DNA from: an uncultured archaeon
Lineage (GTDB): Archaea; EX4484-52; B79-G9
Reading direction: 5' to 3'
DNA length: 25,696 bases
NCBI GenBank assembly: GCA_965370705.1
Contig: CBDUVR010000001.1
Span: 1-25,696, forward strand
Shown here: positions 13,484 through 17,959 of the stretch, in pieces
Numbering within the stretch: the stretch's first letter is position 1
Layout: each line of letters begins with the position of its first letter
The notes under the pieces: generated by a model
The model's database searches: none
Told to the model about the DNA's origin: nothing
Seen by the model: only the letters and a program-made list of their open reading frames with translations
Translations under genes and position numbers: made by a program

Positions 13484-13970
13484 TGAACTCACTCACGAGA
13501 CAGACAATGTTGTCATAAGCTACAAGGGGAAGGAACCGTTTCGCATCAGACGGCATGTGGAAAGTATTCTCAGGTCTACGCTTGAAATTGATGCGCCGAA
13601 GTTTTATCTGCATTATATTGCATGGGATGTTACCGATGGTGCTTATAAGGGTGAGTGGAGAGCTTATAAGCCCTGGGACAGATGGACAGGCATAAATATA
13701 ATTGTGCGAACATGGGGACAGCAGACGCTGGGGGATCCTGAAAAGAACGGGTGGATGAAACTGAAACTGATAGGCACACTTGATACAAAATATGAATACA
13801 CACACAGCATTCAAAAGAGTTTGTGGTGGTCGTATAATTATCTTTTTTATAATAAGAATCGCTCGAATACATTTGAGGAAGCGAGGGATTTTTATTTCAG
13901 GGTTCTTGCTGAGATAAAAAAGCTTTACGGGATATACAGGAAAGAAGAGGCTGTGGCACCGAAGATTTAA
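13461..13970 (+). CDS. Hypothetical protein, second of a tandem paralog pair
   Basis: 169 aa, overlaps the upstream paralog by 23 bp. Shared pattern: ISYKGKEP vs FNYSGPHP, YIAWD vs YTWE, LDTKY vs IVTEY, IQKSL vs IQQSI, YLFYNKNR vs NMFYAKQR. Confidence 0.8.
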   Translation: MPVLKYSDELTHETDNVVISYKGKEPFRIRRHVESILRSTLEIDAPKFYLHYIAWDVTDGAYKGEWRAYKPWDRWTGINIIVRTWGQQTLGDPEKNGWMKLKLIGTLDTKYEYTHSIQKSLWWSYNYLFYNKNRSNTFEEARDFYFRVLAEIKKLYGIYRKEEAVAPKI

Positions 13971-14476
13971 TCTCCTCTGAGCCTGTCCTGTATGTTCTTC
14001 AGAAGGTCAAGTATGTGCTCGTTTTGGGTTCTTAAGTCTTTTATTTCCAGAAGAATTGTGTTCACATCTGCCTGTCCGGTGCCTGCTCCGCTTGTTATTC
14101 GAGACTGATTGAAAAATTCTCTTTTTTGTTCATCTGTTGAGTGGTTGGTTTCTGGCATTTGCAAGGGCTTGTCTGGTTGTGGGGGGGGTCTGTCGGCGCC
14201 TTTTGGAAGCGTAAGCGGGTCATTGATGTCAAGCATTTGTTGATTCTGTACTCCTGGTTCCATTAGCGCGGTGGGGGGTTCCGCCTGGTTCTCAAGTTTG
14301 TAGTTGCTGCTTAGCTGCTCTTTTTCCGGGGACTGTCTGCTGCTGCCTTCCAGTACTTTTTTTGAGTATGAACCGGAGTCGTCAAATGCCTCGTCTATTT
14401 CCTGATCTATGCTTTTTTTGTGGAATTTTGTTTTCAACTTGTCTACAAAGCCGAGGTTTAGACTTATTATGATCAC
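13967..14476 (-). CDS. Hypothetical protein: basic N-terminus, disordered P/Q-rich middle, short C-terminal coiled coil
   Basis: Open 169-aa frame ending ILLEIKDLRTQNEHILDLLKNIQDRL. Start uncertain because the GTG lies inside a GGTGA SD-like motif. Confidence 0.7.
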   Translation of the reverse strand: MIIISLNLGFVDKLKTKFHKKSIDQEIDEAFDDSGSYSKKVLEGSSRQSPEKEQLSSNYKLENQAEPPTALMEPGVQNQQMLDINDPLTLPKGADRPPPQPDKPLQMPETNHSTDEQKREFFNQSRITSGAGTGQADVNTILLEIKDLRTQNEHILDLLKNIQDRLRGD

Positions 14477-14565: not shown

Positions 14566-16632
14566 ATGGATGAAAAATTGAGGGAAAAGTTTGTTGATGA
14601 GAGATGGACGAAAAGCAATGAGCCTGTGGGCTATATTGTAGGGGTTACCCCGGGGTTTTCGCAGTTTGAGCAGGGTGAGGAGAAGCTCACGAACATGGGG
14701 CTTGCAAGAAAAATAATGAAAGCTGCCCGTCTCGGGTTTGATTTCTGCCAGATTGATTATGAAGCTCTTTCTGAGATGTTTGAGGCTGATATTAAAGAGC
14801 AGATTGCGCATATCAAGAGCAGCCAGGGGAATATTGATACAGGCAGGAAGTTCGAGGTTGGCCTGCACCTCCAGACAGACCTTGATCTGTGCATTGCAGG
14901 GGCTTATGAATGGAAGATCATGCATGATCGACTTACCAAGGGCGCGTATTCTGCAAGAAGGCTGGTTGAGGCAAAATATTTCCTGTTTCATACTTCGTCG
15001 CGCATACGCCCGCATGTGACGTTTGATGTAGGGCAGCAGGAGCCGAGGGTTGCTTTGTATTCATTTGACGGGAAGAATCTGGCGCAGTTCATGCAGGAGG
15101 TAGATGATGGCACATACGTGGATCCTGCAAGAGGCTCGGTAACATGCCCCACATCAACTCCTGACGGTACAAAATTCGTAAGCATGCAGGATTGGTTCAT
15201 GGGCCGGTTCATAACCATACTTTTCAATGCTATGGGTGCGCCAGCGGATGTAAGCAGTGTCGCATTCTTCGATAACTTTATGCTAGAACAAAACGGTACT
15301 GGTTTTCAAGAGGGATATGACAAAAATGTAGTACAGTACCAGAAACTTATAGCTGAATTGACCAAAGAAATTAATATACGAAAACGTAATATGAGCATTG
15401 AATGGAAAAATAAACAAACGCAACTTTTAATGCAAAAGCAATATCTTCAACAAAAAAATATAGTAGTACCCGCACAAATTGAAATTGATCTTAAAGAGAT
15501 CGAAACAGAGATACAAACCTTAAATTCTGGCTCTATGGAGACTGAAATACAAAATAGAGTATTAACAGAAAGAAAAGATATTGAACAAGGAATCAAAGAT
15601 GTTAACACCGTAAGACAATATCTCGAGAGAACCGACTTCAACGACGTCTTCGACTTCTGGCGCAGGCACGGCTCAGAAGCAGAAGAGCAGGTGGCATACC
15701 GCATCATTGCAAAGTACATGTGGCTGACACATGACCCGTTGTGGGCAGATATCGTCGGCATGCAATATGACCCGGACCAGATAACGTGGCGCAATGAACT
15801 CGGGTATGAATACTACTCAAAAGACAAAAAATCACAGGAGAAGAATGGCCCTACACTAAAAATACTTGTTGAAAAACTGATCACTGCTGTTGCTGCGAAG
15901 TATATCCAGGGGCATCTTTTTGTGAAACATGAAAGATGGTCTATGAAAATGGATGACAAGGAGTTAACATCTGACATATCTGTATATGAATACACTAAGG
16001 AATCCGGTATGAAGATATATATTGAAACAGCAATGCCGCCGCAGGGACAGGAAGGGCAGCTGAGGATCATGAGCGCCAATGACCATGTGAAACTTGTGAA
16101 AAATCTTGATAAAGGCGTTATCACTTCATATTGCGTTGACTTTGAGCACCTTACAGTAAACTACATCCGCGTCAATGAGGACATAGAATCCCTGAAAGAC
16201 GGCGACGCCAAATATATAACTATGGTGCATATTAATGCGCCGCGCCCTATCATGGGCGCCCATGCCCCGGTCGAGAGGCTGTCGCGCGATATGCAGGTAA
16301 TATATCGCTGGCTGTACCTGATGAGACAGAAGGGGATGAAAAATTCTTATCTTATATGGGAGATGGGCTCATATGGTGTAAAGGAAAGCGCGGTGGCTTT
16401 CAGGAACCTTATGCATGAGTTAAGCAAGGATACTGACCCGCTCAAGCTGCCAAAGGAATTTTACGGGATTGATGAGATGTTTGAACAGCAGCAGTGGGTA
16501 AATATGAGAGAGCATGCGTATGATGCGCTCAAGGGTGTGATAGCAAACCCTGAAGAGGATCATGGCCTCTTGTCTACTGAGGCTGTGAAGAAGAACAAGC
16601 TTGCTGAGTGGCTTGCCGGCAGGTACAAGTAA
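14566..16632 (+). CDS. Endonuclease IV/xylose isomerase-like TIM-barrel metalloprotein with a large internal insertion
   Basis: Ordered metal-ligand motifs EVGLHL, LFHTS, YIETA, CVDFEH, MVHIN, GAHAP and IWEMG. About 340 aa, including a coiled coil, lie between FHT and IET. Confidence 0.7.
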   Translation: MDEKLREKFVDERWTKSNEPVGYIVGVTPGFSQFEQGEEKLTNMGLARKIMKAARLGFDFCQIDYEALSEMFEADIKEQIAHIKSSQGNIDTGRKFEVGLHLQTDLDLCIAGAYEWKIMHDRLTKGAYSARRLVEAKYFLFHTSSRIRPHVTFDVGQQEPRVALYSFDGKNLAQFMQEVDDGTYVDPARGSVTCPTSTPDGTKFVSMQDWFMGRFITILFNAMGAPADVSSVAFFDNFMLEQNGTGFQEGYDKNVVQYQKLIAELTKEINIRKRNMSIEWKNKQTQLLMQKQYLQQKNIVVPAQIEIDLKEIETEIQTLNSGSMETEIQNRVLTERKDIEQGIKDVNTVRQYLERTDFNDVFDFWRRHGSEAEEQVAYRIIAKYMWLTHDPLWADIVGMQYDPDQITWRNELGYEYYSKDKKSQEKNGPTLKILVEKLITAVAAKYIQGHLFVKHERWSMKMDDKELTSDISVYEYTKESGMKIYIETAMPPQGQEGQLRIMSANDHVKLVKNLDKGVITSYCVDFEHLTVNYIRVNEDIESLKDGDAKYITMVHINAPRPIMGAHAPVERLSRDMQVIYRWLYLMRQKGMKNSYLIWEMGSYGVKESAVAFRNLMHELSKDTDPLKLPKEFYGIDEMFEQQQWVNMREHAYDALKGVIANPEEDHGLLSTEAVKKNKLAEWLAGRYK

Positions 16633-16634
16633 CG

Positions 16635-16736
16635 AGTTGTGTTCTTATGTGTCCTGATGAGACTGACGGTTATCTCGATGAGCATGCGAGAAAGAAAAAG
16701 AAAGGCAGCGTGTGGGAAAGAGAGAAATACAGGTGA
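16635..16736 (+). pseudogene. Relic or cryptic diverged copy of the C-terminal tail of the upstream TIM-barrel gene
   Basis: This frame reads (SC)VLMCPDETDGYLDEHARKKKKGSVWEREKYR* and aligns without gaps to VIANPEEDHGLLSTEAVKKNKLAEWLAGRYK*. The two stop codons are 104 nt apart, and an in-frame ATG sits at 16647. Confidence 0.65.
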
Positions 16737-16744
16737 GCTTAGTG

Positions 16745-17959
16745 TTAGCGCACAAGTTCAGGGCTTGGCTTCCAGTCTGCTTTGTTGTATTCGTCTATGA
16801 TTCTTTCATATGTGCTTTTTGTCATGTTTGCAATGTTCTGCCAGTTGTATGTGCTTTTTACAGTATTGTATGCGTTGGTCACTATATTTTCTTTTAAGCC
16901 ATTGTCTTTGAGAACCCGACTGATCCCGATCGCGAGTGATTCTGAGTGGCCGGACCATACTTTCAGACCGTTTACTTCATGCTGGATTATTTCTGATAAT
17001 CCCCCTGTGTCTGATGCCACGACGGGCGTCCTTGATGCCATACCTTCAAGCGCTACAATGCCGAAGGGCTCATAGCGCGAAGGAATAACAACTACATCTG
17101 AGATGTGCAAGAGCGCATCAAGGGTATCATCATCTGTATAGCCTGTGAATAAGACTTTGTTTCCCAAGCCCATCTGGTTTGTCAGGTCCCTGCATTTTTC
17201 GGTCATGTAGCCTTCGCCTGTAATTACGAATTTTGCTTCAGGAACTTCTTTCAGTACAGACCCGACTGCTCCAACAAGCACGTCAACACCTTTTTCCCAT
17301 ACGTGCCTCCCGACGAAGAATACGATTTTCTCATACGGGAGGGCAAACTTGTTTCTTATTTCTGCATAGCGATCATAATTGAAATCATATTTGGACATGT
17401 TCACTCCGTTGGGTATTACATCGATTTTATCCCATGGTGTGTAGAATGATGAGCATACGCTTTGCTTCATGAAATTTGAGCAGGTGATTACACGCCATGA
17501 TTCATATACCATCTTCCTTTCTATGTCGCGTATCAGTTCCTGGCGGTCTTCATATATCCCGCCGCGGCGGCCTTCTTCAAGTGAATGTATTGTCGAGAGT
17601 AATGGGATTCTGTAGATATGCTTGAGGCCAATTGCTGCTGTTGCAACAAGCCAGTCATGCGCATGTATCAAGGAGATATCTTTGAATTCTTCGATGACTT
17701 TGCTTGCCTGGTTCTGCATCAGGACATTCATCTGGAGTGCCCATGAGGGGAAGTCTTCTGCAGGTATGTTGTCTGCATCAAAGCGGAATACATGAACCCC
17801 GTCTATGTTTTCATAGCCCTGGCTGCCTGAGAAAGCGCATGCAATGACGATGGGCTCTATCCCTGCTTTTACCTGTGCACGTGTCAGGTCATCTACATGC
17901 GTTCCAAGCCCGCCTACTTTATGCGGTGGATATTCTGATGTCAGGTGAAGTATTTTCAT
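16745..17959 (-). CDS. GT4 glycosyltransferase, probable alpha-glucan/glycogen synthase-type
   Basis: SEYPPHKVGGLG, IHAHDWL, FVGRHVWEKG and PSRYEPFGIVALE (EX7E). Confidence 0.9.
   Translation of the reverse strand: MKILHLTSEYPPHKVGGLGTHVDDLTRAQVKAGIEPIVIACAFSGSQGYENIDGVHVFRFDADNIPAEDFPSWALQMNVLMQNQASKVIEEFKDISLIHAHDWLVATAAIGLKHIYRIPLLSTIHSLEEGRRGGIYEDRQELIRDIERKMVYESWRVITCSNFMKQSVCSSFYTPWDKIDVIPNGVNMSKYDFNYDRYAEIRNKFALPYEKIVFFVGRHVWEKGVDVLVGAVGSVLKEVPEAKFVITGEGYMTEKCRDLTNQMGLGNKVLFTGYTDDDTLDALLHISDVVVIPSRYEPFGIVALEGMASRTPVVASDTGGLSEIIQHEVNGLKVWSGHSESLAIGISRVLKDNGLKENIVTNAYNTVKSTYNWQNIANMTKSTYERIIDEYNKADWKPSPELVR

Follow-up and report, generated by a model that had tools for sequence, protein, structure and literature searches.

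A conserved 29-codon archaeal gene homologous to an enzyme family's C-terminal tail: a candidate tail-mimic microprotein

Separately encoded protein segments and the locus

MicroProteins of plants and animals are small, single-module relatives of larger proteins, which act via a shared interaction surface (PMC9638782). In vivo, fragments of a protein can block interactions in which the parent protein takes part, and the inhibitory (dominant-negative) fragments found in bacteria by tiling screens and FragFold illustrate that a peptide with the sequence of a segment can occupy the interface of that segment (PMC9245647, PMC11831152). The small open reading frame (small ORF) described here, which lies behind the gene of a TIM-barrel enzyme in an uncultured archaeon, is likewise small (29 codons at 13 loci), single-module, and related to part of a larger protein. 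It differs from the microProteins in being archaeal, in its length of 29 residues, and in its apparent derivation from a C-terminal tail instead of the dimerisation domain of a transcription factor; moreover, genes of its type usually adjoin a gene of the parent family, and its binding and any effect are putative. Unlike the man-made fragments of the tiling and FragFold work, it is natural, separately encoded and selected.

Other arrangements known from bacteria resemble the locus in part. In CdiA-CT/Rhs polymorphic toxin loci, orphan C-terminal modules are found downstream of the full-length gene, and the small ORF, too, is an extra C-terminal coding piece behind a full-length gene. An earlier note on this DNA had pointed to this parallel, which does not extend further: the locus has no upstream homology block, immunity gene, or strain polymorphism, its parent is a TIM barrel of metabolic type, there is no recombination block, both tails are conserved, and the stop codon of the convergent GT4 gene is only 8 nt away from that of the small ORF. 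Internal in-frame starts in bacteria give free C-terminal isoforms beside the full-length protein, whereas the small ORF is a diverged gene of its own outside the parent ORF. Regulators of the fragment type are known to occur naturally in plants and animals, and bacterial ones have been made by engineering; as conserved archaeal genes, they have to our knowledge not been described.

Annotation almost always misses proteins of fewer than 30 residues. Here, comparative data alone show that the small ORF is under selection, and its ancestry in an enzyme tail suggests a testable mechanism, i.e., mimicry of that tail. If this mechanism held true for a whole family of such genes, decoy tails would be a natural prokaryotic counterpart of the eukaryotic microProteins, and the family would have been overlooked because its genes lie at or below the length limits of gene callers. 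In addition, a tail with an invariant Ala, an invariant Trp, and a fixed end points to a functionally important element of a widespread, uncharacterised DPANN enzyme.

The window, i.e., the whole stretch of DNA that was analysed, is 25,696 nt long. The features of concern here are:

14566-16632, plus strand: parent gene P0001, encoding a xylose-isomerase-like TIM-barrel protein of 688 aa; stop codon TAA at 16630-16632
16537-16632, plus strand: the enzyme's own C-terminal tail, V658 to K688 (16537-16629) followed by the TAA; homologous to the small ORF
16633-16646, plus strand: spacer of 14 nt between the stop codon of the enzyme gene and the ATG of the small ORF
16647-16736, plus strand: small ORF (ATG, 28 more codons, TGA), encoding a tail-like peptide of 29 aa
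16745-17959, minus strand: convergent GT4 glycosyltransferase gene (assigned by Pfam), which delimits the small ORF on the right

The small ORF takes up most of the 112-nt gap between two convergent genes. Its frame (position mod 3 = 0) consists of the codons 16641-16733, followed by TGA at 16734-16736, and reads V-L-M-C-P-D-E-T ... W-E-R-E-K-Y-R; the peptide itself can be summarised as M-x-P-D-E ... L ... A-x-K-K-K-K ... W-x-x-E-x-Y-x. The last two codons of the spacer, GTT CTT (V-L, 16641-16646), match the V/L-L that precedes the Met in the tail alignment of the family, and the frame upstream of 16641 is unrelated to the enzyme. The earlier note had placed the ATG at 16647 correctly, but let the second tail begin at 16635, two codons before the homology starts.

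Homology to the enzyme tail and purifying selection

The parent enzyme is predicted to adopt a xylose isomerase-like TIM-barrel fold. Its AF2 model (pLDDT 87.8) was matched by Foldseek to D-tagatose/D-allulose 3-epimerases and xylose isomerases with a probability of 1.0, and the matches, among them UlaE and endonuclease IV, have probabilities of 0.97-1.0 and E-values from 4e-4. A long helical insertion (about residues 247-460) interrupts the barrel. P0001 itself has no match in Pfam or NCBIfam; its 67 homologues are found in DPANN-type archaeal assemblies, and many of the distant ones carry PF01261 according to precomputed annotation. Within the C-terminal tail of the enzyme, A673 and W682 are invariant family-wide, and P662 and E663 nearly so. 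Residues 651-688 reach a pLDDT of 56-77 in the monomer model, and such low values would fit a segment that requires the surface of a partner, which may be a further subunit, for its folding or docking. A predicted complex between enzyme residues 1-657 and the 31-residue tail ORF obtained a score of 0.00 in a run without controls, which speaks neither for nor against binding.

The window around P0001 holds genes of glycogen type (GT4, half GT4, glycogen synthase, and GDE_C glucosidase, by Pfam). A divergent upstream gene (13967-14476, minus strand), whose product of 169 aa has no Pfam match, accompanies the enzyme gene over several genera, with identities of 29-58% between genera and up to 94% within the genus. 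The convergent GT4 neighbour is found in the genus clade only, which places the small ORF at a synteny breakpoint. In distant lineages, the enzyme gene closes an operon of genes for proteins of ~113 aa and ~560-615 aa, none of which has a Pfam match, and two genes for ~168-aa proteins lie divergently upstream of that operon. Inside the enzyme gene of the present locus, G+C dips to 0.295 at 15300-15600; since this part encodes the Lys/Glu/Ile/Gln-rich helical insertion (helices 247-355 of the model), the dip can be explained without foreign DNA. The earlier note had linked the second tail to a mosaic composition of the gene, a link without support in the G+C profile, which stays flat at 0.465-0.475 and has no compositional junction where the tail meets the small ORF.

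The small ORF is homologous to the C-terminal tail of the enzyme family, as sequence comparisons at several distances show. It aligns without gaps to the last 31 residues of the neighbouring enzyme, with 11 of 31 residues identical (i.e., 35%) and the stop codons in register (BLASTP, 22.7 bits; E 5e-4, as a single comparison), which confirms the original observation of a second tail in another frame. In register, 45% of the nucleotides agree, and shared words do not exceed 5 nt, so that the resemblance resides at the protein level; the synonymous codon differences that had been listed for shared residues (GGC/GGT, GCT/GCG, AAG/AAA) are indeed present, and the description as a diverged protein-level homologue is borne out.

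The small ORF was also compared with the rest of the family. A profile of the C-terminal 45 residues, based on 55 distant homologues and excluding this gene and ten close relatives, was searched against all 55,676 six-frame stop-to-stop ORFs of the 1.56-Mb genome. The frame of the small ORF scored 29.5 bits (E 1.5e-6), the enzyme's own tail had an E-value of 6e-18, and the next match had E = 6. With such a value genome-wide, the homology is real; insignificance against a C-terminal profile of the family had been named in advance as what would overturn the idea. In tblastn searches, 10 of 12 distant homologues matched the small-ORF frame; nine of them did so over 16641-16733 (to 16730 in one of these nine) with their last 30-31 residues, at identities of 37-45%. 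In an alignment with 25 enzyme tails, which contains no gaps, the Ala and the Trp are invariant. A paralogue whose body ends in the second tail, as had been envisaged, was not found in this genome: tblastn with the 12 distant homologues detected no second copy or fragment of the enzyme body, and the genome search gave one copy.

To assess selection, the DNA downstream of the enzyme gene was scanned for the small ORF in relatives. The 13 related loci referred to here are those with a detected copy, and their enzymes are 70-92% identical to the present one. All 13 have exactly 29 codons and a stop codon, without any indel; 12 begin with ATG and one with GTG behind a GAGGAGTGA motif. M1, P3, D4, E5, L10, A14, K16-19, W23, E26, and Y28 are invariant, and pairwise peptide identities range from 55 to 97%. 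Variation is concentrated at third codon positions: mean pairwise differences at positions 1/2/3 are 0.152/0.166/0.490, and the variable sites number 11, 12, and 26 of 28, respectively. While dN is 0.15-0.38, dS is saturated in most pairs. A codon model yields an omega of 0.06, a value that, given the small alignment, is to be taken as a strong direction and not as an exact figure, and fixing omega at 1 costs 2ΔlnL = 110. The same DNA gives omega values of 11.5, 1.9, and 5.8 in three other open frames, and the last 28 codons of the enzyme gene give 0.027. Strong purifying selection on the small ORF across a genus-level clade is thus shown by the sequences, and the possibility raised in the earlier note, that a 29-aa peptide starts at ATG 16647, is supported as that of a conserved coding gene with constant length, start, and stop.

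The surroundings of the small ORF are far less constant. Among the relatives, spacers of 10, 14, 20, 25, 32, 44, 139, and 978 nt occur, which are unalignable, and with such varying lengths the small ORF has no constant frame relative to the enzyme gene. The spacer of 978 nt, in one species, contains an inserted gene for 296 aa, and the small ORF is unchanged there. A search of metagenome contigs for related loci returned two loci only; related metagenome contigs have indels at 16737-16745 and none inside the small ORF. The small ORF occurs once per genome in six of the eight genomes of the genus; of the remaining two, one is without the enzyme gene, and the contig of the other ends 559 nt after it. 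Taken together, it is very probable that the small ORF is a selected protein-coding gene derived from the tail of the enzyme family.

Free-standing tails in other archaea and the origin of the small ORF

Orphan tails behind homologous enzyme genes, which the earlier note had proposed to look for, were found not only at the 13 related loci. In a distant clade of enzymes (36-39% identical), free tails of 22-26 codons with an ATG or GTG of their own are present at three loci: the first is 52 nt downstream of the enzyme gene, the second follows an inserted gene for 61 aa, and the third lies 1.1 kb away, behind two genes on the opposite strand and with an AT-rich upstream region. Profile searches in a second archaeal phylum revealed tail ORFs with a start codon in at least eight of 371 genomes, two of the eight being located on a contig other than that of the enzyme gene. 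One of these free tails starts in a TAATG overlap with the stop codon of the enzyme gene, a classic coupling arrangement. Free-standing tail ORFs outside the genus are 22-33 codons long, and in one group of three genomes the differences at the three codon positions amount to 8/5/20, with dS saturated. Within the phylum of the present genome, the free form occurs in this genus only (42 genomes). Most lineages with the enzyme have no detectable free tail, which is therefore dispensable.

Common to all free forms are the Leu, the Trp, the Glu, the penultimate Tyr/Leu, and the same end position, and most of them also have the Ala. All of them are without the His/aromatic residue of the enzyme motif P-E-E-x-H/W-T/G-F-L, and most are more basic. 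In reciprocal profile scores, the free forms rank near the top but are interleaved with enzyme tails; the best match of the genus profile is a free form unlinked to the enzyme gene in another genome (G070, 37.8 bits). The recurrence of tail-only mini-genes in small-genome archaea suggests a peptide that replaces the enzyme's tail or competes with it. Tentatively, all free tails could belong to one old, phylum-spanning DPANN family of decoy tails that controls assembly or activity of the TIM-barrel enzyme by taking up the docking site of its tail, though the odds are against so broad a reading. An open frame of 149 residues in one assembly (L139, G115:C1:21484-21933) ends in a complete tail of enzyme type, including the His/aromatic residue; it could represent a shortened enzyme gene, or else a C-terminal paralogue of greater length.

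With respect to its origin, the small ORF resembles distant tails more than that of the adjacent enzyme. The tail of the neighbouring enzyme is only the 49th of 66 in its likeness to the small-ORF peptides, and reaches 12.5 bits with the small-ORF profile, compared to 24-29 bits for several distant tails. In whole-genome searches, this profile matched the enzyme tails of three other genera; the enzyme tail of the genus itself was not among the matches at E <= 0.01. The sister genus possesses the derived tail type of the neighbouring enzyme, and the second tail is absent there. These likenesses suggest that the source of the small ORF was most likely a consensus-like tail, acquired either by an older partial duplication or as a copy that was foreign or had been displaced. 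In either case, a family member's 3' end would have become a gene, the conserved internal Met of V/L-L-M-V/I-P-E-E serving as the start. The scar of an allele replacement, as had been suggested, is possible as an origin, given the resemblance to foreign or consensus tails. As a description of the present state it fails, since a neutral scar would not outlast saturated synonymous divergence. That a donor supplied the tail along with the GT4/glycogen genes is not supported: at the three distant loci that were inspected, the adjacent genes are different ones, and 38-aa ORFs beside two of them are unrelated to the tail.

Proposed tail mimicry, expression, and competing explanations

The favoured reading is that the small ORF encodes a translated tail-mimic microprotein derived from the family tail; with the mimic mechanism included, it is assigned a probability of about 0.55. 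The peptide keeps the anchors of the tail (Pro-acidic-Glu, Leu, Ala and Trp as the two invariant residues, Glu, Tyr in the penultimate position, and the C-terminal end), whereas it has lost the conserved His/aromatic residue and gained a run of Lys. As the anchor residues and the end are preserved, the peptide probably occupies the site where the tail of the enzyme docks, be it on the enzyme, on a neighbouring subunit, or on a shared partner; as a mimic or decoy of the tail, it would then adjust the assembly or the activity of the enzyme. An HbYX-like C-terminal docking to the proteasome by the K/R-Y-R end was also considered and set aside: in this mode of docking, the residue before the Tyr is expected to be hydrophobic, and here it is basic.

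Enzyme and small ORF probably share a transcript and are expressed together. A Shine-Dalgarno-like motif, AAGGTAA, is located 6-8 nt before the ATG in six loci, and other genes in the window have motifs of the GGAGG/AGGTG type or none. At the small ORF of the present genome such a motif is absent; with the ATG 14 nt after the stop codon of the enzyme gene, translation here would require co-transcription with the enzyme gene, followed by re-initiation. In an RNA library (metatranscriptome), a contig from a ~93% identical relative spans 16606-17238, which is a weak hint at transcription, as the strand is not shown and the template may be DNA. Among ~15 billion predicted proteins, one of seven versions of the peptide is present, without a name and from JGI data, and a profile search of 1.84 billion protein representatives returned only that 29-aa cluster and one spurious partial match.

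The main rival to tail mimicry accepts a real small protein but gives it a different target: its job, e.g., binding to nucleic acid, to the ribosome, or to some other partner as a basic peptide, would be unrelated to the tail-docking site. This is considered somewhat unlikely, although several observations speak for it. The free forms share a Lys/Arg run, which replaces an acidic-Lys-Gly-Lys stretch, as well as the loss of the His/aromatic residue, features not shared by enzyme tails. Two free forms are encoded on contigs other than that of the enzyme gene, from which it follows that the target need not be the enzyme, and in two genomes a free form is the only match of the small-ORF profile. 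However, the conserved Pro, Leu, Ala, Trp, Glu, and Tyr and the exact C-terminal end are the very positions that are conserved in enzyme tails, and this coincidence points to the same binding mode. Moreover, 16 of the 18 inspected free forms of known position lie just downstream of the enzyme gene on the same strand. By contrast, it is highly improbable that the small ORF is a neutral relic, i.e., an old 3' end left behind by gene replacement or displaced by an insertion, with no function today. Such a relic would account for the greater closeness to distant or consensus tails (49 of 66; 12.5 versus up to 29 bits), for the two in-frame residues before the ATG that still match the family, and for the position at a synteny breakpoint, but it is at odds with an omega of 0.06, with 2ΔlnL = 110 against neutrality, and with the dominance of third-position variation. 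Nor would a relic be expected to persist in 13 lineages without indels, internal stops, or loss of the start, next to unalignable spacers with indels and at saturated synonymous sites. Furthermore, the sister genus shares the derived tail type of the neighbour and has no relic, and peptide identities of 55-97% argue against 13 recent transfers of one sequence.

The two remaining alternatives do without a separate gene product. An element of the DNA or RNA, such as a structure in the 3' UTR or a terminator between convergent genes, would explain why nearly the whole 112-nt gap is filled, yet is more improbable still: Rfam gave no match at E <= 1, the fold is not unusually stable (z-score 0.20), a search for terminators detected no such site, no compensatory base-pair changes are seen across the 13 loci, and the variation is codon-periodic in one frame only. 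The least credible of all is an alternative C-terminus of the enzyme, which would be attached by programmed frameshifting or readthrough or be stored as a silent recombination cassette. It takes its appeal from the location directly behind the gene with the stop in register, and from two metagenome contigs (one per DNA run) that align with a spacer of 13 or 14 nt (16630-16645) skipped; a skip of 14 nt, if it were a true deletion, would remove the TAA and fuse enzyme and small ORF in frame. However, the letters between these joints are not known, and at 88% likeness the contigs may stem from relatives with another spacer; among the related metagenome contigs, none was found that joins the gene body to the second tail, a joint that the earlier note had proposed to look for. 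The spacers, of 10-978 nt, represent all three phases, and most loci have a stop codon within two codons upstream of the ATG, which opposes frameshifting or readthrough. The cassette for tail swapping, another suggestion of that note, lacks the DNA homology needed for recombination (45% identity, no shared word above 5 nt); both tails are conserved and not polymorphic (omega 0.027 and 0.06), and each genome has one of each.

Several observations concern the DNA around and opposite the small ORF, which seems to lie in an insertion-prone gap. The inserted gene in the 978-nt spacer (G003, L002:3582-4472, plus strand) encodes 296 aa with an N-terminal hydrophobic signal or anchor and many Cys, and has no NCBIfam match. 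Two other relatives have acquired genes in the interval from the small ORF to the GT4 gene (L037:4769-5242 and L040:4029-5665): a HicB/HicA toxin-antitoxin pair in one, and a Pol-beta-type nucleotidyltransferase together with a methyltransferase in the other. ORFs that by eye are HicA/HicB-like also adjoin the unlinked free tail of G070 (L129). On the opposite strand, public gene calls place ORFs of 156 aa (L034:4497-4967, minus strand) and 93 aa (L038:4616-4897, minus strand) across the small ORF; as the codon-position variation fits no antisense frame, both calls are probably spurious.
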